From: a virus
DNA length: 64,000 bases
Direction: 5' to 3' (one strand)
IMG/VR virus record: IMGVR_UViG_3300045988_023748
Of the stretch, positions 7,155 through 46,295 are shown one piece after another. The position numbers and the translations under genes are program-made. The notes below the pieces were generated by a model. The model was not told the DNA's origin. It made no database searches and was given only the letters and a program-made list of their open reading frames with translations. Positions within the stretch are counted from its first letter, which is position 1; each line of letters opens with the position of its first letter.

Positions 7155-7228
7155 TGTCGGGTTCGTCTAATTGGATAGGACGCATGTCTCTCACACATGT
7201 AATACGGGTTCAAATCCCGTTGGGAATA
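7155..7228 (+). pseudogene. tRNA-like fragment (D-stem, anticodon arm catgt-ctCTCac-acatg, T-arm acggg-ttcaaat-cccgt) without a pairing acceptor stem
   Basis: Three arms fold, but the 3' tail tgggaat has no complementary 5' strand. The tail TTGGGAATAC recurs at 7298-7307. Confidence 0.3.
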
Positions 7229-13027: not shown

Positions 13028-13820
13028 TTTGAATGCGGAAGCTCTACGTAATGCCCTAGTAGTTGCTTCTATGGAGTATTGTAAGAAATACTTGGAAGGG
13101 CAGAATGTCGATAAGACAGAAGATATTAAAGCTCAGATTGCTAAGCTGGAAGCTAATGGATTAGGTAGAACTAAGAATGCTGAAGTACTTCGTACTCTAT
13201 TAACTGCTAAAGGTTCTAGTAAATCTAGAGATGAAATTGCCTCTCTTATTGACAGAATCAAGAAAGTTAGTCCCTCTTGTATGATAGTTCCTTATGATGA
13301 TTTCTTTAAAGTATTGAAGAAGTACAACTTAGCTTGTGGTCCCATTTCAACTTATAAGGGAGTTATCCCTGAAGAGAACATTGAAGCTATTGTAAAGGCC
13401 GGAGAGGAATTGCGTAAAATAAGGAATATTAATAACATGCAATGGGTTCCTAGAATAGATATAGATTCCGATATGCCAAAGAGTATAGTAAATGAAATCG
13501 TTGAATACTTCTCAAGATTCCCGTTTGTAGTGGACGATATCTCTTCTGGATGGCAATATATGCGTGCTATAGGACACCCAGAAGTTGAGGACAGTGTAAG
13601 CTTCAGTCCACTTACCTTAAATGACAGTGACTGGTGTATAGCAGCTCCCTATGATACTATGACAGATAATATAACTATCAGAATGTATTCAGGTAAAGAA
13701 GAGGCTAGAAAACGTCAGCTTGAGGATCCAATTGTCTTTAAGGCAAATGAAATAGGAGCAATTATTGCTACTATGTGGGATACTGAAGCTAAGGATAGCA
13801 TCTTTGATAAATATCGTTAA
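13017..13820 (+). CDS. hypothetical protein, paralog A (267 aa)
   Basis: Shares blocks with 17543..18364 (DDFFKVLKKYNLACGPISTYKGVIPEENIEAI vs EEDFINLNVKYGLVSGPLSYYKGDIPEDNLDEI; tails ...W..EA.D.IFD). Confidence 0.5.
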   Translation: MVNNLNAEALRNALVVASMEYCKKYLEGQNVDKTEDIKAQIAKLEANGLGRTKNAEVLRTLLTAKGSSKSRDEIASLIDRIKKVSPSCMIVPYDDFFKVLKKYNLACGPISTYKGVIPEENIEAIVKAGEELRKIRNINNMQWVPRIDIDSDMPKSIVNEIVEYFSRFPFVVDDISSGWQYMRAIGHPEVEDSVSFSPLTLNDSDWCIAAPYDTMTDNITIRMYSGKEEARKRQLEDPIVFKANEIGAIIATMWDTEAKDSIFDKYR

Positions 13821-13831
13821 CTTATGAATCC

Positions 13832-13939
13832 ATAAGAACATAAAGAGACAAAGCCAGACTAGCTAGCAACGAGGCGAACGGGAGGTATTAAGGTTACATC
13901 AGTGATGATGTAGACACGATGAGCTTTATGTTCTTATTA
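13832..13939 (+). ncRNA. long-range inverted repeat (14-bp stem ataagaacataaag / ctttatgttcttat) enclosing ~80 nt, immediately upstream of a tRNA
   Basis: Perfect 14-bp complementarity between 13832-13845 and 13926-13939. No ORF. Confidence 0.4.
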
Positions 13940-13941
13940 AT

Positions 13942-14016
13942 GGCGACATAGCTCATTTTGGTTAGAGCGTGATACTCATAATATCAAGGTTGGGTGTTCG
14001 AGTCACCTTCTCGCCA
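13942..14016 (+). tRNA. second CAU-anticodon tRNA (Met/Ile2)
   Basis: ggcgaca/tctcgcc acceptor (one C-C mismatch), anticodon arm tgata-ctCATaa-tatca, T-arm gggtg-ttcgagt-cacct. Confidence 0.75.
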
Positions 14017-14041
14017 CATTACTAATTAATACTTAAAGATT

Positions 14042-14443
14042 ATGTACGTAAAGTTTGTAAAAGACGATAAGACAATAGAGGAAGTATCAATCTCATCAGA
14101 GATGATTCCATTCCCTACAGACACAGTGGTGCTAGAAGCTGGCAAATTTACTGTAGAATCCAGAGAGTATGATATACTTGATGGAACTTGTACAGTTATC
14201 CTGGACCAGCAAATCACTTGGACAGAACATCCTCAAGAGTATAATGATGCAATGCTTGCATACAAGAAGCGTTGGAATAATACAATTGATTTGTCATGTG
14301 AAGACTTTTTTAAGATGAAGCAGCTTGTGCAGAGGGGTACCAAACTACAAGCAGTTAAGCATGTAAAGGAGTCTACCAAATGCGGTTTGAAAGAAGCCAA
14401 AGATTTTGTTGATACTTATTGTGATTATGTATTAAATGACTAG
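14042..14443 (+). CDS. protein with ribosomal L7/L12 C-terminal-domain-like segment
   Basis: C-terminus QAVKHVKESTKCGLKEAKDFVDTY resembles the bL12 CTD motif (...GLGLKEAKDLVE...). Confidence 0.5.
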   Translation: MYVKFVKDDKTIEEVSISSEMIPFPTDTVVLEAGKFTVESREYDILDGTCTVILDQQITWTEHPQEYNDAMLAYKKRWNNTIDLSCEDFFKMKQLVQRGTKLQAVKHVKESTKCGLKEAKDFVDTYCDYVLND

Positions 14444-14705
14444 AAGTAGACGTAAAATTCCTATTGTTAAAGGACCTAAAGTTAAACGCAATTGGTATAA
14501 CCGAAGGGTTAAGAGACACCAAAGGCAACAGACTAGAGATATTCTAACACTTAAAGATATCCTAGACTATGAGATTTCTTCTAGTAGGGAGATTGTGAAC
14601 GATTATGATGTATGTGATTATAAATTCGATTATAGGTTTCTAACTCCGTTTATGAAGAGACATGGTTCCTATGGTGAATATGCAAAGAAAGTATTAAGGA
14701 AATGA
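14436..14705 (+). CDS. small highly basic protein (89 aa)
   Basis: N-terminus MTRSRRKIPIVKGPKVKRNWYNRRVKRHQRQQTRD. Start overlaps the previous stop. Confidence 0.45.
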   Translation: MTRSRRKIPIVKGPKVKRNWYNRRVKRHQRQQTRDILTLKDILDYEISSSREIVNDYDVCDYKFDYRFLTPFMKRHGSYGEYAKKVLRK

Positions 14706-14766
14706 AATGGTTGTATCGTCTATTAATCAATTGGATTGATAGATTAAATGAAGAGCAGTGTGAAAT

Positions 14767-14928
14767 ATGATGGTTTTAAGATGTGTATTGGTAACTTTAG
14801 CTGCAATGTCCCTAGGAAGTGCAGTTCTAGCAATGATATGGAATGCCAATGATAAATTCATTAAAGTAATGTTCTCCATATCAATGGTAACTACAATAAT
14901 GTTACTTCTTCTTGCATGTATTGTATAA
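14767..14928 (+). CDS. small membrane protein (~53 aa), not in ORF track
   Basis: ATGATGGTTTTAAGATGTGTA... encodes two hydrophobic helices, read manually. Confidence 0.3.
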   Translation: MMVLRCVLVTLAAMSLGSAVLAMIWNANDKFIKVMFSISMVTTIMLLLLACIV

Positions 14929-14935
14929 TAAGGAT

Positions 14936-15020
14936 GGCGCAGTGTCGGAACTGGTATACGAAACGCACTTAAAATGCGTTGCCCTTTATGGGATTGAGGG
15001 TTCGATTCCCTTCTGCGTCA
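14936..15020 (+). tRNA. tRNA-Leu(UAA), type II
   Basis: 85 nt. ggcgcag/ctgcgtc acceptor, anticodon arm acgca-ctTAAaa-tgcgt, variable hairpin ccc-tttat-ggg, T-arm gaggg-ttcgatt-ccctt. Confidence 0.75.
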
Positions 15021-15039
15021 CAGATGTATCTAAGCTCTG

Positions 15040-15082
15040 GTGGGCAGAAGTGCTCGTGCGGGTTCGACTCCCGTTCTGGCCA
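15040..15082 (+). pseudogene. tRNA 3' fragment (T-arm gcggg-ttcgact-cccgt plus acceptor tctggcc) lacking a 5' half
   Basis: Only ~45 nt separate it from the preceding tRNA, and there is no complementary acceptor strand. Confidence 0.35.
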
Positions 15083-15100
15083 CAATTAAAATTATGTTGT

Positions 15101-15259
15101 ATGCATCAGTGTGATTATTGTTGTTGGTATAATCCAGCAGGGTATTGTGATTGTCCGTTAGTAATGAGAAAGAAGGCTTGTAAGTCTGCTATCAAGACTA
15201 AAGAAAGGACTGAAAATAAGGTAGTAACGTCTAAAGCAGTTAATAATGAAGATTTATGA
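15101..15259 (+). CDS. small Cys-rich protein (52 aa); N-terminal part of track ORF 14912..15259 is spurious (covers tRNAs)
   Basis: MHQCDYCCWYNPAGYCDCPLVMRKKACK... Confidence 0.3.
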   Translation: MHQCDYCCWYNPAGYCDCPLVMRKKACKSAIKTKERTENKVVTSKAVNNEDL

Positions 15260-15743
15260 ATTTCTAAGAAAGGTTACTAAAATTGAATTGTCACAAGTCA
15301 AATATGTATTCGGTGACTGGGATTTAGCTTTAGAGGAATACGTCAATAAATGTGAAAGGCATCGTGCGCCCAATGTAATGGCATTATTAAAACTGTCATC
15401 TACATTGGGCGAACTTGTTGATTTATACAGAGGTCTTGAACTTAAGAGATATCCCATTCCAGAAGCCGAGCTAGAGGCTAAGAAACAACGATATGACACT
15501 TTAATGGAATATTGTTTATGTGGCAATGGAGGACATTTATCTATGTTTGAGAGAATAACTAACGGTTCTAGAATGGAACAGAGATTAAACTTTATTTACG
15601 AAATGCAATTAATGGCTAATGCTATACAAGGTAAAGATGTTGGCAGAAGGAAACTCCTTCGTAACTTCAGAGAAGGGAAATTCCATGACTCCTCTAATCA
15701 AATCGGGACAAAAGCATGTCTTAAGTCCAGTAACCCTAGATAA
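15246..15743 (+). CDS. hypothetical protein (165 aa)
   Basis: ORF track. Overlaps the next ORF by ~125 nt in another frame. Confidence 0.4.
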   Translation: MKIYEFLRKVTKIELSQVKYVFGDWDLALEEYVNKCERHRAPNVMALLKLSSTLGELVDLYRGLELKRYPIPEAELEAKKQRYDTLMEYCLCGNGGHLSMFERITNGSRMEQRLNFIYEMQLMANAIQGKDVGRRKLLRNFREGKFHDSSNQIGTKACLKSSNPR

Positions 15744-18376: not shown

Positions 18377-20389
18377 GTGGAATTTATTGATTTTAAACGA
18401 GCAGTTTATAAGCAATTTGATGCCTTAGCTAATAATGCTGATAGATTGTATTTAACTAATGTTAATAAGGATGAGCTGTGGGATTGTTACATAGATTCTT
18501 ATCCAGAAGACGAGAGACAATCACATACATGTAATTGCTGTCGTCAATTTATCAAACCTTATGGCAATGTAGTTGCAATAGTTAATAACAAGTTAGTAAG
18601 TATTTGGGATTCCTTAGTGTTAGATGAACCTTATGCTACAGTAGCCAGAAACTTAGCCCAACTTGTTAAATCTAAACCAGTATGTGACGTATTTGTTAGT
18701 AAGGTGGTTAAACTGGGTACAGATAAGAACAATGTGTGGATAGAAACTCCTACGAGACACGTACATACATGGAATCATTTATTTTACAAGCTTCCTAATC
18801 ATTTACTTTGTGCAGTATCTGATTCTGAAGAAGCAGTAAGAGGAGCACTTCGTACCAATAAAACAGTATTGAAGCGGGCTTTGGATGAGTTATCCATGGA
18901 TGCTTTTGACATTGTTCTGGATTTGATTTCACAAGGTTCTTTGTATCGTGGAGACCAGTACAAATCCGATCTAGAGGCATTTGTTGCACTTAAGAAGAAA
19001 TATGAAGTAGTACCCCGTGAGGAACGTGATAATTTCTGCTGGGTTGAATCTGCTAAAGTTGGATATGTAGGACGTATTAGGAATACTGCTATAGGCACTT
19101 TGCTTGTAGACATCTCCAATGGACGTGAACTTGATGAAAGTGTAAGAGCTTACGAGAGAATAGTAGCTCCTGCTAATTATCAAAGACCTAAGACAATAGC
19201 TACTAAGAAGATGATTCAAGCTGCTGAAGCTAGGGTTATTGAACTAGGGCTAATGGATGCACTTCCAAGGCGACATGCAGAAATTACTGACATTACAGTT
19301 AATGATGTAATCTTTGCTGATAGAAATGCTAAGAAGTCAATGCTTGGGAATAGTGTATTCCAAGATTTAGCGGAAGATATTCCAGTTAATCCTAAGAAAT
19401 TAGGTACTGTTGCTGAAATATCAATTGAGGACTTTATTAAGGATGTTGTTCCCAATGCTACCAGTATAGAAGTTCTATTAGAAAGTAGACATATAAACAA
19501 CCTTATGACTCTAACAGCTCCATCTAATAAAGATGCAAAGAATCTATTTAAATGGCCAAACAATTTCGCTTGGACATACAATGGAGACCTTGCAGATTCT
19601 TCTATTAAGGATAAGGTGCAGGCTGCTGGAGGTAAGGTGAATGGATATCTAAGGTGTTCTCTTGCATGGTATAATGGTGATGATTTAGACATCCATATCA
19701 TACAACCTTGGGGTAGTGAAATCAATTACTCGTGTAGAGCTGGAGCCTCTGGTGGGGTGCTAGATGTCGACATGAATGCTGGTGGTATACATTCTCGTAA
19801 ACCAGTAGAGAACGTTATCTGGGAGGATGAACCGCGTATGGAAGGTATGTATACCGTATATGTACACAATTTCTGCAAAAGAGATTATCACGATGTTGGA
19901 TTTACTGTTGAAATTGAATGTAACGGAGAAGTACGTGAGTATACCTACACAACAGATCTTCGAGGTCGTGATAAAGTGACAGTAGCCAGATTTGAGTATT
20001 CTAAGGCCAAGGGAATTGTCATACATGATGTCCTTCCGAGTAATTCAAGTGATAAAGAGACGTGGAACTTGTCTACTAACAAATTCCATAAGGTATCGTT
20101 ACTCACTCTGTCTCCAAATTATTGGAACGGTGCAGAAGTAGGCAATAAACACTATTTCTTTATCTTAGATGGGTGCAAGAATCCATCTCCAGTAAGAGGA
20201 TTCTTTAACGAATATCTTAGGAGTGAACTATCTCAGGATCGTAAGACATTTGAGATGTTAGCTAATAAGATGAAGGCTCCTTATTCTGATAATCAGTTGA
20301 GTGGTTTAGGATTCTCATCTACCATCCGCAATAGTGTTATCTGTAAAGTTACTGGCAGCTTTACAAGAACCATTAAAGTTAACTTTTAA
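18377..20389 (+). CDS. large hypothetical protein (670 aa)
   Basis: Long ORF with an N-terminal Cys cluster HTCNCCRQF. No domain recognisable by eye. Confidence 0.55.
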   Translation: MEFIDFKRAVYKQFDALANNADRLYLTNVNKDELWDCYIDSYPEDERQSHTCNCCRQFIKPYGNVVAIVNNKLVSIWDSLVLDEPYATVARNLAQLVKSKPVCDVFVSKVVKLGTDKNNVWIETPTRHVHTWNHLFYKLPNHLLCAVSDSEEAVRGALRTNKTVLKRALDELSMDAFDIVLDLISQGSLYRGDQYKSDLEAFVALKKKYEVVPREERDNFCWVESAKVGYVGRIRNTAIGTLLVDISNGRELDESVRAYERIVAPANYQRPKTIATKKMIQAAEARVIELGLMDALPRRHAEITDITVNDVIFADRNAKKSMLGNSVFQDLAEDIPVNPKKLGTVAEISIEDFIKDVVPNATSIEVLLESRHINNLMTLTAPSNKDAKNLFKWPNNFAWTYNGDLADSSIKDKVQAAGGKVNGYLRCSLAWYNGDDLDIHIIQPWGSEINYSCRAGASGGVLDVDMNAGGIHSRKPVENVIWEDEPRMEGMYTVYVHNFCKRDYHDVGFTVEIECNGEVREYTYTTDLRGRDKVTVARFEYSKAKGIVIHDVLPSNSSDKETWNLSTNKFHKVSLLTLSPNYWNGAEVGNKHYFFILDGCKNPSPVRGFFNEYLRSELSQDRKTFEMLANKMKAPYSDNQLSGLGFSSTIRNSVICKVTGSFTRTIKVNF

Positions 20390-41703: not shown

Positions 41704-42483
41704 ATGGACGAACAAAATTTTAAATTTAATTATGTATTCCAGGGACAAGATTGTACCCTATCAACTGGAGTCTATAAGATTACTATCCAGAATCATGTTT
41801 ACATCGGTAGTGCAGCAATCTCTTTTAGAAAACGGTGGAGACAACACCAGTTAGACTTTATTAGAGATATACACCACTCTAGGTTCGCGCAGAACGCATT
41901 TAATAAATATGGCATTGCCACATTTGAGATAATGGAATTATGTCCTAGGGAACTATGCATAGAGAGGGAGCAATGGTGGATAGACACTTTGAAACCAGAC
42001 CTGAATATTCAAAAGATTGCTGATAGTGCTTTAGGAGTCAAGAGGACTGAGGAAACTAAGCGGAAATGTAGAGAGGCTCACTTGGGAAAGAGGTTGTCTG
42101 AGGAAGCTATAGCTAAGAGAACAGCAAAGCAAGTTAAGACAATCTATCAATATGATTTAGATGGAAATCTAATCAAGGAATGGGATAGTGTTAAACAAGC
42201 TGGAGAAGCTCTTGGAATTAATAGACCTTCTATTAGTAACTGTTTAAAAGGTAGATACAAGTCTGCTGGGGGATTCATTTGGAGGTATTCTGTGGAAGAG
42301 GTTTCTCCTGTGAAGAAAACCAAGTCTATAGAACAATATGATTTGGATGGAAATTTAATTAAAGTATGGGACAGTATAAATTCTATTGAAAATGGGACTG
42401 ATTACAAAAGGAAGACAATTTATGCTTGTGCAAATGGTCAAAATAGTACAGCGTATGGATATGTATGGAAGTATTGTAGATAA
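41704..42483 (+). CDS. GIY-YIG endonuclease with NUMOD-like repeats
   Basis: VYKITIQNHVYIGSAAISFRKRWRQH, and a C-terminal IEQYDLDGNLIK repeat. Confidence 0.7.
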   Translation: MDEQNFKFNYVFQGQDCTLSTGVYKITIQNHVYIGSAAISFRKRWRQHQLDFIRDIHHSRFAQNAFNKYGIATFEIMELCPRELCIEREQWWIDTLKPDLNIQKIADSALGVKRTEETKRKCREAHLGKRLSEEAIAKRTAKQVKTIYQYDLDGNLIKEWDSVKQAGEALGINRPSISNCLKGRYKSAGGFIWRYSVEEVSPVKKTKSIEQYDLDGNLIKVWDSINSIENGTDYKRKTIYACANGQNSTAYGYVWKYCR

Positions 42484-42489
42484 TAAACT

Positions 42490-43668
42490 ATGCTTAATGT
42501 CAGAATTATTACTATAATGCCTAAGAAACTTACTACTGAAGAATGGATTAATAAAGCTAGAATTAAACATGGAGATAAATATGATTATTCTAAATCTGTG
42601 TACACTGGAAGTAGAGATAGAATAATCATCACTTGTCCGAAACATGGCGACTTTACAGCTATATCCGGATTGCATATTTCTAGAGGGGATGGTTGTCCTG
42701 AGTGTGCTTCATTAGCTAAAAGTAGCAAGCTTTCATTATCTAATGAAGAATTTATTAACCGTTTACGTGACATGTTTGGGGATAATTATGATTACTCTAA
42801 AGTCAAATATAATGGCACTAGAGGGTATGTTACCATAGTATGTCCTAAACATGGTGAATTTAAGGCCCGTGTTGGCACTCTATCGAGAGGTGTAGGATGT
42901 CTGAAATGTAAAGAGGAAGAAAGACTTAAAAAGTTTAATGACCTTTACATAAAGAAATTTAAGGAGTACTACCCAGATTTAGATTATAGTAAAACTGTAT
43001 ATACTGGGTGGGATACTAGAATAGTTATAACATGCCCCAAACACGGTGACTTTGAAGTCCTTCCTAACCACTTTCTTAGGTATAAAGGGTGTCCAAAATG
43101 CTCTGCTGAAAGTCATGCAAAGTATATGCAGAAGTCCTTAGATGACTTTCTAAAGGATGCCAGACGCATTCATGGCACACGTTATGATTATTCTAGAGTA
43201 GAGTACAACGATAGTCGTACAAAGGTCTGTATTGTATGCCCTGAACATGGTGAATTTTGGCAGACTCCAAATAGCCATATACAAGGTAGTGGCTGCCCTA
43301 GCTGCTCAAGTTCAAAGGGCGAAGAAGAGGTATGTAACATTTTGTTAAGTAATGGAATTAAATTTATAAGGGAATACACTATCCAAGTGCCTAATGAGAT
43401 TAACACCTCTGGACACGCTTATATTGATTTTTACTTACCAGAATATAATACCTTTGTGGAATATAATGGCATTCAACATTATAATCCTAAAATGGCATTT
43501 GGCGGGTCTTTCAAATTTGAGCGACAACAAGCTCGTGACGAGTATGTTAGGCAATATTGTAAAGACAATAATATCAAATTAATAGAGATTCGTTATGATG
43601 AAGATGTGTGGGAAGTTTTGACCAGAGAACTTCTTGATAATCAAACAACAAACGAAGAATGCAAATAA
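42490..43668 (+). CDS. multi-zinc-ribbon protein with C-terminal DUF559/Vsr-like endonuclease domain
   Basis: Four copies of the unit CP(K/E)HG(D/E)F...GCPxC. C-terminus HAYIDFYLPEYNTFVEYNGIQH (DF...E.NG.H). Confidence 0.45.
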   Translation: MLNVRIITIMPKKLTTEEWINKARIKHGDKYDYSKSVYTGSRDRIIITCPKHGDFTAISGLHISRGDGCPECASLAKSSKLSLSNEEFINRLRDMFGDNYDYSKVKYNGTRGYVTIVCPKHGEFKARVGTLSRGVGCLKCKEEERLKKFNDLYIKKFKEYYPDLDYSKTVYTGWDTRIVITCPKHGDFEVLPNHFLRYKGCPKCSAESHAKYMQKSLDDFLKDARRIHGTRYDYSRVEYNDSRTKVCIVCPEHGEFWQTPNSHIQGSGCPSCSSSKGEEEVCNILLSNGIKFIREYTIQVPNEINTSGHAYIDFYLPEYNTFVEYNGIQHYNPKMAFGGSFKFERQQARDEYVRQYCKDNNIKLIEIRYDEDVWEVLTRELLDNQTTNEECK

Positions 43669-44438
43669 GTATTGACCAACTCATGAATGGTAAGGCTACT
43701 AGAATAGGTAAGAGAGCATATTTACCAACTGCTGCCTATGTAGAGCCTTTTATTGAAAGAATGTCCAAGTTTACTAAAGACTTTATAGTTGAAGTAGAAT
43801 TGCCTAAACAGGTCACTAGGACAGTCGATGGAGATGTTAATGCAGATGATATCACTTATAATCGTGTACTTATTCAAGCTGTAATGCCAGAGAATTGCAG
43901 AATAGATAATCACGATGAAGTTATTGGTATGGTATATGGATTAGACGTCCGTAAACCAGTAGCTAAGATTTATAGAGGTGCTCTTAATAGAGCATGTACA
44001 AACTTATGTGTCTTTGACCCAGAGTTCTTACAAGTTCAGAACTTAGAGTCTGAGAAGCCTATTAATTATAAAGCTGTTGAACACCTTTTATCACAAACCA
44101 GTGATATTAAATTGATGTTGGACACCTTACATAATACTACATGGGAAGGAACTCCAAGTAATATAGACTCTAATCTAGGTAGATGGGTTAGAAACGCTAT
44201 ATCTATGACCTATAATGGCGGGTATGGAGACGTAAAGATAGGAACAGACCTTGTTGTTAAGGCTTATGGTTCTATGTTTGAAGACCCTGATTCTAGCTAT
44301 TATATAGGAGAGGGTAATGAGGTGGATATGTTTACTGTGTATAATGCATTTACTCAGTTAATTAGTAATGACAAGGGCAAAGATTTGATGAATAGAGCAG
44401 AGAAGACTCTATTACTAAGAAACATATTAAACTTCTAA
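43659..44438 (+). CDS. hypothetical protein
   Basis: ORF track. Confidence 0.45.
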   Translation: MQISIDQLMNGKATRIGKRAYLPTAAYVEPFIERMSKFTKDFIVEVELPKQVTRTVDGDVNADDITYNRVLIQAVMPENCRIDNHDEVIGMVYGLDVRKPVAKIYRGALNRACTNLCVFDPEFLQVQNLESEKPINYKAVEHLLSQTSDIKLMLDTLHNTTWEGTPSNIDSNLGRWVRNAISMTYNGGYGDVKIGTDLVVKAYGSMFEDPDSSYYIGEGNEVDMFTVYNAFTQLISNDKGKDLMNRAEKTLLLRNILNF

Positions 44439-44443
44439 ATTGA

Positions 44444-45490
44444 ATGTTAGTAATTAAAAGAAATAAGAGAGTAGAACCTTTCGATATTAATAAGATTGAC
44501 GCGGCTATTACTAAGGCGTTCAATGCTGTTAACGAACCAATTGATTCCGATATTTTGGATGATATTAAAGATGAATTGTATATTAACAACATAGTATCAG
44601 TAGAAGAGCTTCAAGATCAAATTGAAAAGGCTTTGATGGCTTGTGATTACTATGATGTCGCTAAAGCATTCATTTTGTATCGACATAAACAAGCTGAACT
44701 TAGAGCATTAGCTGGGAAGAAGCAGTTTATTAAGGATTATGCCAAAGCATCTAATGCTGCTACAGGTAGTAAATATGATGCTAATGCCAATGTTACTGAG
44801 AAGAATATAGTAACTTTAAATGGAGAGTTGTTTAAGGGTGATGTAATTAAAGTTAATAGAGCAATCCTTACAGATAAAATTAGGCAGTTATATGGTGAAG
44901 ATTTAGCTAAGGAGTATATTAGACAACTGGAATCTCATGAACTTTACAAGCATGATGAAACATCAATTATGCCCTACTGCGTGGCTATCACTATGTATCC
45001 GTTCCTACTTGAAGGGCTACAGCCAATTGGAGGTTTGTCTGCCAAGCCTAAGAATCTGGACTCCTTCTGCGGTATGTTTGTTAATCTGGTATTTGCTATC
45101 AGCTCGCAATTCGCTGGAGCAGTAGCTACTGGTGAGTTCCTAATGTATTTCGATTATTTCGCTCGTAAAGAATGGGGTGATGATTATTGGAAACGTCCAG
45201 AAGAGATGGTTGATAAACATAGAAATATTGATAAGACTATTGAACAGAAGTTCCAACAGATTGTATATTCAATCAATCAACCAGCAGCTGCTCGTAACTT
45301 CCAATCAGTATTCTGGAATATCAGTTATTTTGATAAGAATTACTTTGAAGGTTTATTTGGTGAGTTTGTATTCCCCGATGGAACTAAGCCCATATGGGAT
45401 TCTTTGAACTGGTTACAGAAGAAGTTTATGACTTGGTTTAACGAGGAGAGGACTAAGTGCATATTAACGTTCCCTGTGAATTTCGCAGCT
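44444..45490 (+). CDS. nrdD: anaerobic ribonucleotide reductase NrdD, exon 1 (ATP-cone plus N-terminal catalytic region)
   Basis: ATP-cone VIKRNKRVEPFDINKIDAAITKA. Terminates at a TGA that is followed by intron core blocks. Confidence 0.65.
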
Positions 45491-46295
45491 TGATAGAGTA
45501 ATCTATCTCGAACAACTCCTCTAATTGCTGGGACATCTTAACATTAATTAATGGTAGAAAGTTAGGAAATGTAAGTAAATTACATTATCTTTGCACTAGA
45601 TAATTAGTATTAAGACAATCAGCAGCTAAGCATTATGGAAGAAATTTGGAAAGAAATCCCTAACTATGAAGGGTACTTTGAAGTAAGTACTTTAGGTAAC
45701 TTTAGAAGTAAAGATAGAATTATCAAGTATAAGCAATCTGGAACTCGTAATTATCCTGGCAAATCACTTAAAGTAGAGGTTATGCAAGATGGTTACAGTA
45801 GGATTGTGTTAATGAAAGAAGGTGTTAAGAAAAGATATATGTGTCATAGGCTTGTAGCTGAGACGTACATACCAAATCCTGACAACAAACCTTACGTTAA
45901 TCATATAGATGGCAATCGTTCTAATAACTGTGTAGAGAACCTAGAATGGTGCACACAGTCAGAGAATGAAAGACACTCTGTAGATGTACTTGGTAAGTCT
46001 ATGAAGGGGAAGACTGCTCCAAAGGCAGTCAGATGTATAGAGAATGATACTATATATAAATCTATGAGTGAAGCAGTACGCCTTATAGGTAAGCCATCTT
46101 GTGTGGAAGGGTTACATAAAGCTATCAATGCTAATAGGTTGTATCATGGATATACATTTGAGTTCTGTAATGAAAGTTCAACGACTATCTCGAAAGAGAG
46201 TACACTGTAAGCTATTGACAGTGGAAATGGGGAGAATCCTAATAGGATTGTGATATAGTCTGACCTGTATGGTGACATACAGCAGTTCATAAGAG
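45491..46295 (+). mobile_element. group I intron 1 in nrdD with HNH endonuclease (boundaries approximate)
   Basis: AACTCCTCTAATTGCTGGGA is shared with the helicase intron (29058), as are CGACTATCTCGAAAGAGAGTACA and CCTAATAGG. GATATAGTC motif plus a P9-like hairpin ctgtatggtgacatacag. Confidence 0.55.
45635..46210 (+). CDS. HNH homing endonuclease (NUMOD4 plus HNH)
   Basis: EIWKEIPNYEGYFEVSTLGNFRS, then VNHIDGNRSNNCVENLEWCTQSENERH. Confidence 0.8.
   Translation: MEEIWKEIPNYEGYFEVSTLGNFRSKDRIIKYKQSGTRNYPGKSLKVEVMQDGYSRIVLMKEGVKKRYMCHRLVAETYIPNPDNKPYVNHIDGNRSNNCVENLEWCTQSENERHSVDVLGKSMKGKTAPKAVRCIENDTIYKSMSEAVRLIGKPSCVEGLHKAINANRLYHGYTFEFCNESSTTISKESTL

Follow-up and report, generated by a model that had tools for sequence, protein, structure and literature searches.

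Virus-encoded proteins with a bL12 domain have already been described (Mizuno et al. 2019, Nat Commun 10:752). The viral bL12 domains of that study are variably embedded in otherwise unrelated polypeptides, have been acquired repeatedly, and are under purifying selection. The bL12-domain protein of Salmonella phage FSL SP-076 was found by mass spectrometry in washed 70S ribosomes, and a tagged viral bL12 failed when used for the affinity purification of ribosomes (Mizuno et al. 2019). In the bacterial stalk protein bL12 itself (rplL; PF16320 and PF00542; TIGR00855), the C-terminal domain (CTD) is made up of three helices and three strands (PMC5887453). Helices 4 and 5 form a conserved positive site for IF2, EF-Tu, EF-G and RF3 (PMC6753160), and residues V66-V68, K70, L80 and E82 contact the G' subdomain of EF-G (PMC5887453).

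The gene described here, gene A, resembles those of Mizuno et al. (2019) in that it encodes a phage protein with a PF00542 match and is under purifying selection. The phages of that study, however, have genomes of less than 80 kb and Proteobacteria hosts, whereas gene A belongs to a crAss-like phage of about 180 kb and encodes the alpha4-alpha5 hairpin only. The original prediction regarded phage-encoded ribosomal-protein mimics as rare, which does not hold, since phage proteins with bL12 domains were already reported in 2019 and the short module is present in other phages too.

The window, by which we mean the whole stretch of 64,000 nucleotides that was analysed (IMG/VR record IMGVR_UViG_3300045988_023748), is a one-strand, 35% GC stretch of a large phage. 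Its first 22 kb contain 12 tRNA genes, and its replication module encodes PolA, a DnaB-like helicase, a Dda-like helicase, an ATP-dependent ligase, an RNA ligase and NrdD. With this phage replication module, the tRNA block and relatives on IMG/VR viral contigs, the window qualifies as a bona fide viral genome. PolA shows 92% identity to an unannotated human-faecal phage contig and 40–45% identity to crAss-like phages (among them cr111_1, IAS virus and Bacteroides PhiCrAss phages). The longest contigs carrying relatives of gene A are about 175–187 kb, together with one of 362 kb that is probably a dimer. The source is an uncultured crAss-like phage with a genome of about 180 kb. Genomes of the Zeta group of crAss-like phages are 145–192 kb and start with a tRNA block (PMC7886860; PMC12386605), and the size of about 180 kb suggests that the phage belongs to this group and has a Bacteroidota host. 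Shine-Dalgarno-like motifs are depleted 5' of the genes (5 of 96, all gene starts of the window being counted, versus a 13% background), and the leaders are rich in A and T. Both features agree with the SD-independent initiation found in Bacteroidota hosts. A search of INPHARED for the phage DNA or protein nearest to the locus gave no useful match.

Elsewhere in the window, NrdD is apparently split (41704–45493), with an ATP-cone and an NRDD N-terminal part at 44444–45493. An HNH/DUF723 homing-endonuclease-like ORF is located close by at 42490–43668, and this adjacency suggests an intron- or intein-type interruption. A 670-aa protein encoded at 18377–20389 belongs to PHROG 1735, and its homologue in the related contig L001 is assigned to Pfam DUF8224. 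Proteins about 47% identical to it occur in many unrelated large phages, which infect Klebsiella, Salmonella, Bacillus and Caulobacter; one record labels a homologue as RNA polymerase. An extra tRNA was reported by Rfam at 7161–7228 on the plus strand (41.8 bits), but not by ARAGORN.

Gene A (14042–14443, plus strand) starts with ATG and encodes an acidic protein of 133 aa (pI 4.9). Its end overlaps by 8 nt with the next ORF, B89 (14436–14705, plus strand; 89 aa), and both reading frames were found as originally predicted. The start codon of A is supported by the residues M1, V3 and F5, which are invariant across the A family. A tRNA-Met (CAT; 13942–14017, plus strand) ends 24 nt upstream of the start of A and a tRNA-Leu (TAA; 14936–15021, plus strand) is located downstream, both being conserved context within the phage tRNA block. 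The order up267, tRNA-Met, A, small membrane ORF, tRNA-Leu and dn165 is kept in all related loci. An Rfam search of 13700–15300 returned the two tRNAs only; the tRNA-Met had been missed in the whole-window Rfam run and was recovered in this local one. None of the 33 neighbouring ORFs scanned with Pfam matched a translation-related protein family. Sigma-70 promoter and terminator scans around the locus gave nothing clearly above shuffled controls, the model being probably wrong for a Bacteroidota phage.

From its N-terminus, the encoded protein runs through a beta-rich region and a helical linker to a small, bL12-like helical module, which takes up the last ~45 residues. In the AF2 model, which was built from a shallow alignment (mean pLDDT 63), the N-terminal half has predicted strands at residues 2–7, 10–16, 34–38 and 41–45 (pLDDT <55), followed by helices at 64–78, 86–97, 101–111 and 116–132 (pLDDT 78–90). 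The N-terminal domain of about 62 residues (14042–14227, plus strand), predicted to be beta-rich, has no match in Pfam, PHROG or PDB, and a Foldseek search of the model, with its low-confidence N-terminal half, gave nothing in PDB with E<0.7. The bL12-like three-helix module (14303–14419, plus strand; residues 88–126) comprises helix 0, predicted at about residues 86–97, and the equivalent of alpha4-alpha5 (14339–14419, plus strand; residues 100–126). Residues 103–126 read QAVKHVKESTKCGLKEAKDFVDTY. The module is present in a single copy and the protein has no hydrophobic N-terminal helix. One 145-aa variant of gene A (P0001) contains an in-frame tandem duplication of 12 residues of helix alpha4 (KLQAIKHVKEST twice).

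The original prediction was that a segment of this protein mimics the bL12 CTD, to be checked against Pfam. The search gave a significant match of A to PF00542 (Ribosomal_L12), with an E-value of 3.8e-6 and 27.6 bits against a gathering cut-off of 25.9. This match is partial and covers 27 residues (100–126), which correspond to profile positions 11–37 of 67 and hence to helices alpha4 and alpha5. The profile was matched by all seven family members (37–92% identical to A), and the PF00542 label is already present on many near-identical homologues in the public protein collection. Using a profile of the seven members as a query against PDB, 13 of the best 14 matches were bL12 chains; with the single A sequence the PDB match was weak (E 0.15).

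Residues K101-Y126 of A align with K65-A90 of E. coli bL12, that is, with helices alpha4 and alpha5, and A is identical to residues 64–90 of the E. coli protein at 12 of 27 positions. Thus K101, K106, G115, L116, K117, E118, A119, K120, D121 and V123 of A correspond to K65, K70, G79, L80, K81, E82, A83, K84, D85 and V87, and conservative changes are L102 for V66 and K109 for R73. The numbering is that of E. coli bL12, and the 1ctf alignment confirms the relevant segment. The conserved factor-binding residues of helices 4 and 5 are present in A, and the segment shares its net positive charge with bL12. A literature search for the motif GLKEAK gave only vaccine-design papers in which L7/L12 is used as an adjuvant.

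By sequence comparison, the two module helices of A are homologous to alpha4-alpha5 of the bL12 CTD. This part of the original prediction was borne out, but the resemblance does not extend to the domain as such: its three strands are all absent from A, and of its three helices only two are present. A ends seven residues past the PF00542 match, and the complete alpha/beta CTD is absent. The bL12 N-terminal domain (Ribosomal_L12_N) gave no match at E<=10, PF00542 being the sole Pfam match, and the model for full bL12, TIGR00855, scored 18.5 bits against a cut-off of 84.4, on residues 99–127 only. Compared with bL12, A thus lacks the N-terminal dimerisation and uL10-binding domain, the hinge, beta1, beta2, alpha6 and beta3; it has an extra helix in place of beta1 and an unrelated N-terminal part of about 85 residues. 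The residues matching strand beta1 are predicted to be helical, as part of the AF2 helix 86–97. The candidate assignments of gene A as a ribosomal protein or as a complete CTD were rejected, because the bL12 N-terminal domain, its hinge, all three strands and alpha6 are missing.

Comparison with related phages shows that the protein is under strong purifying selection. We found 435 homologues of gene A; a search using the distant relative P0167 as a query returned P0167 alone. Between the window and a second group of phages (group 2: L004-L020, L022 and L024), A is 89–95% identical, whereas the neighbouring proteins are only 32–55% identical. For this comparison dS was 0.60–0.69 and dN 0.02–0.04, giving the dN/dS of 0.03–0.07 from which the strong purifying selection on A follows; against the more distant contig L026, dN/dS was 0.2. 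A is 53% identical to its L026 counterpart overall, but 81.5% identical in alpha4-alpha5 (100–126) and 40% in the N-terminal domain. The corresponding figures for P0167 are 37%, 70.4% and 32%. The family-invariant columns are concentrated in residues 101–128, and on these alignments the module is the most constrained part of A across diverged phage lineages.

The segment around gene A is a mosaic. A block at 13832–14434, containing an upstream element, tRNA-Met and gene A, is about 89% identical at the nucleotide level between the two phage groups, whereas its flanks are 65–77% identical or undetectable/unalignable. The opposite pattern was seen for L023, with 88% identity in the block and 94% in the flanks. 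A breakpoint of the mosaic falls exactly at 13832. These identities point to recombinational exchange of the segment, and the exchange of A between lineages probably postdates the divergence of its flanks. The upstream element is a conserved stretch of about 105 nt (13831–13937, plus strand) located directly 5' of tRNA-Met, with a perfect 14-bp closing stem (13832–13845 with 13924–13937) and an internal hairpin. RNAalifold analysis of six variants gave 29 pairs, seven of them with compensatory double changes. The element has no match in Rfam, is present as a single copy in the window, and shows a clean presence/absence polymorphism, being missing in L008, L011, L012, L015 and L017. It may represent either a small structured RNA that is transcribed together with the tRNA or an insertion of the MITE type, flanked by terminal inverted repeats.

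The module is by no means confined to phages. An exhaustive HMMER search against 1.84 billion cluster representatives gave 954 matches to A. Those beyond the phage's own family are proteins of about 100–400 aa, a few reaching about 950 aa, and they match residues ~90–126 of A only. In hundreds of non-ribosomal bacterial proteins the matching segment is a unit of about 39 residues in 2–6 tandem copies (consensus DAELEAEVRRLLAAGNKIEAIKLYREATGLGLKEAKDAVDALEAGG) with Pro/Ala-rich linkers between the copies. Many of these tandem-repeat proteins begin with a hydrophobic N-terminal helix, a predicted membrane anchor. An HMM made from 190 units scored 53 bits on A, at residues 92–126, and 41.7 bits on E. 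coli bL12, a gap that is indicative and not independent, as the unit set was harvested from matches to A. E. coli bL12 was aligned only from unit position 13, which means that the first helix of the unit is missing in bL12. In a profile–profile comparison of the phage family with the unit (hhalign), residues 88–126 were aligned at 98.8% probability and E 1e-16. Furthermore, the NCBIfam model PRK06771 ("hypothetical protein") matched residues 91–125 of A with an E-value of 1.7e-4, better than the L12 model TIGR00855.

A profile scan of genome contigs, using the pattern GLKEAKD, revealed longer matches containing helix 0 in Acidobacteriota, Chloroflexota, Actinomycetota, Bacillota, Bacteroidota (Chitinophagales), Planctomycetota and Proteobacteria; the output was dominated by true rplL genes and is informative only for the spread of helix 0 across phyla. 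The unit is uncurated, being covered in part by PRK06771 and by Pfam DUF6793 (PF20593), and has in common with A three helices with the consensus EVRRLLAAGNKIEAIKLYREATGLGLKEAKDAVDAL. DUF6793 gave no Pfam match on gene A. Unit proteins in bacteria usually carry 2–6 copies and are in many cases membrane-anchored, whereas A has one copy and no membrane helix. What defines the unit, an amphipathic helix preceding the alpha4-alpha5 hairpin within about 39 residues, is also found in A. Taken together, the sequence matches are indicative of A belonging with this short three-helix unit, better than with the bL12 CTD. The unit appears to have neither a curated family of its own nor a solved structure, PDB having returned bL12 alone.

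Several other phages encode the short form. Five PHROG families with no assigned function match A at residues ~96–128 only, and a tblastn search with the unit consensus gave 52 phage records, including 32 Streptomyces phages and Pseudomonas Otagovirus phages. Ralstonia phage RSB3, one of the phages in Mizuno et al. (2019), also matches the short unit by tblastn. In the Otagovirus COT4 of Pseudomonas, the 157-aa protein UGL61206 (L034, 1267–1740) is annotated as "peptide chain release factor 1". It combines an RF-1/GGQ-type domain (PF00472, E 3e-14), in which GGQ reads GGM, with the short module at PF00542 positions 11–38 and a Cys-rich tail. This protein is possibly a phage ribosome-targeting protein, and the fusion is the sole evidence from context that ties the short module to the ribosome. 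Both UGL61206 and gp3 of the Streptomyces BE-cluster phages (e.g. HangryHippo; PF00542 positions 5–37) are, like A, small (146–157 aa) with a single module near the C-terminus. Neither shares its N-terminal part with A: in COT4 this part is RF-1/GGQ-type, and in the Streptomyces gp3 it is a helical region with no assigned function. Two IMG/VR contigs carry longer forms, namely a full-length phage bL12 homologue of 127 aa with N-terminal domain, hinge and complete CTD (L033, 3788–4171) and a CTD-only protein of 61 aa (L029, 3971–4156). With these two, the forms found in phages span everything from a complete bL12 down to the hairpin-only module.

We tentatively propose, with somewhat less than even confidence, that the module of A docks on host translational GTPases off the stalk and that A acts as an adaptor or decoy. 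Binding of translational GTPases by the module is plausible, and because the residues that contact the factors are the invariant ones, the module would most likely still dock onto the G domains of these host GTPases, away from the stalk. In this scheme a second specificity would come from the N-terminal beta domain. A would be expressed from the phage tRNA block early in infection and would then divert or recruit a translation factor. B89 would stand outside the scheme, as a recently inserted accessory ORF. Three observations link A to translation: the fusion of the module to an RF-1-type domain in COT4, the detection of a viral bL12-domain protein in 70S ribosomes by Mizuno et al. (2019) and the location of A within a tRNA block.

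Several points speak against docking on GTPases. The module amounts to two of the six secondary-structure elements of the CTD, and with helix 0 in place of beta1 the surface may be presented differently. The contacts between bL12 and the factors are weak and transient, and a monomeric decoy would therefore need high expression. There is also no other gene for a translation-related protein nearby, and the model of the N-terminal domain is of low confidence. Finally, the unit is commonest in tandem-repeat bacterial proteins, many of them with a predicted membrane anchor, which leaves room for a conserved partner that is not a GTPase.

The last point leads to the main alternative, which we consider only slightly less probable than docking. 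Here a small module derived from bL12 would now mediate interaction or oligomerisation in a generic way, with a partner that is not a translational GTPase, as is presumably the case in the membrane-anchored tandem-repeat proteins of bacteria, and the function of A would be unrelated to translation. Such a reading would account for the hundreds of non-ribosomal proteins with 2–6 copies, many of which carry the unit behind a hydrophobic N-terminal helix or fused to unrelated regions, and the absence of translation protein genes near A is in line with it. It is further favoured by the better fit of A to the unit than to bL12 (53 vs 27.6 bits, helix 0 included) and by PRK06771 outscoring the L12 model TIGR00855. 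However, the charged surface residues that contact the GTPases (K70, K81, E82, K84 and D85) are kept both in A and in the unit consensus NKIEAIKxxRExTGxGLKEAKD, and the COT4 fusion to an RF-1-like domain points to the ribosome.

The same fusion bears on a further explanation, that A attaches to host ribosomes, with the GTPase-associated centre near uL11 and the sarcin-ricin loop as one conceivable site, and modulates them directly instead of binding free factors. The fusion partner in COT4 is of a type that binds the A-site and peptidyl-transferase centre, and the protein of phage FSL SP-076 was detected in washed 70S ribosomes. The tagged viral bL12, on the other hand, could not serve for the affinity purification of ribosomes. 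A is moreover acidic (pI 4.9) with no RNA-binding signature, and canonical binding to uL10 is impossible for a protein that lacks the bL12 N-terminal domain. We consider direct binding to the ribosome quite unlikely.

B89 was predicted to be a small protein rich in Arg and Lys and reminiscent of ribosomal proteins. Its composition is as predicted, with a pI of 10.3, 24 K+R among 89 residues and a pI of 12 for the first 36 residues; its likeness to ribosomal proteins was not upheld. No match was found in Pfam at E<=10 or in PHROG or NCBIfam at E<=1, and the best PDB match (E 0.37) is to a basic stretch of Giardia eL13. The AF2 model (pLDDT 61, pTM 0.25), mostly one long helix, is of too low confidence for fold comparison. 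Eight protein clusters of B89 were found, all from close relatives, and the ORF is missing downstream of A in group 2 and L026. There the junction reads ...GT(A/G)TTA directly followed by TGAGGTGGTTGTATCAT, whereas in the window ...GTATTA is followed by 268 nt and then TGAAATGGTTGTATCGT. This comparison identifies B89 as a precise 268-nt insertion (14435–14702) between the last ancestral sense codon of A and its ancestral TGA stop, and the ancestral stop of A now ends B89. Loci L001-L003 and L021 have B89 at 100% nucleotide identity and differ by up to 10% in gene A, which indicates a recent spread. B89 thus behaves like a recently spread selfish or accessory ORF. A 152-aa variant (P0127), in which the first ~45 residues of B89 are joined to an S1 RNA-binding domain, is encoded on an 841-bp contig and is probably an assembly chimera.

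That A and B89 form a two-protein mimic of ribosomal proteins, with B89 as the small basic member, is accordingly very improbable. The highly basic N-terminus of B89 and the 8-nt overlap, by which translational coupling would be possible, would suit such a pair. However, B89 matches no Pfam, PHROG or NCBIfam family and resembles eL13 only at E 0.37, it is a clean lineage-specific insertion that is absent after A in group 2 and L026, and it is identical across phages whose gene A differs by 10%. Since it follows A in one sub-lineage only, B89 does not qualify as a conserved partner. That bL12 matches a spurious ORF by chance or composition, as might be suspected from the mere 27 residues and the single-sequence PDB E-value of 0.15, is hardly conceivable in view of the Pfam E-value of 3.8e-6, above the gathering score, the profile–profile E-value of 1e-16, a dN/dS of 0.04 and 435 homologues.

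Returning to the docking of A on host translational GTPases, a broader form of this proposal can be put forward as an unlikely speculation, namely that the free-standing unit is a portable "translational-GTPase handle" that captures or relocates EF-Tu, EF-G, IF2 or RF3 off the ribosome in crAss-like, Streptomyces and Pseudomonas phages and in many bacteria. If this were true, A would help the phage to take over Bacteroidales cells early on, by re-routing one of the host's translation factors.

Gene A confirms and extends a published observation, that of virus-encoded bL12-domain proteins, by a short, uncurated three-helix form, and is not a new kind of system. CrAss-like phages outnumber all others in the human gut, and for most of their genes no function is known. 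In this ~180-kb lineage few small genes are as well conserved as gene A, which offers a concrete starting point for testing whether a translational GTPase is bound. The short bL12-derived unit is common in both bacteria and phages, and finding its partner would annotate hundreds of proteins.
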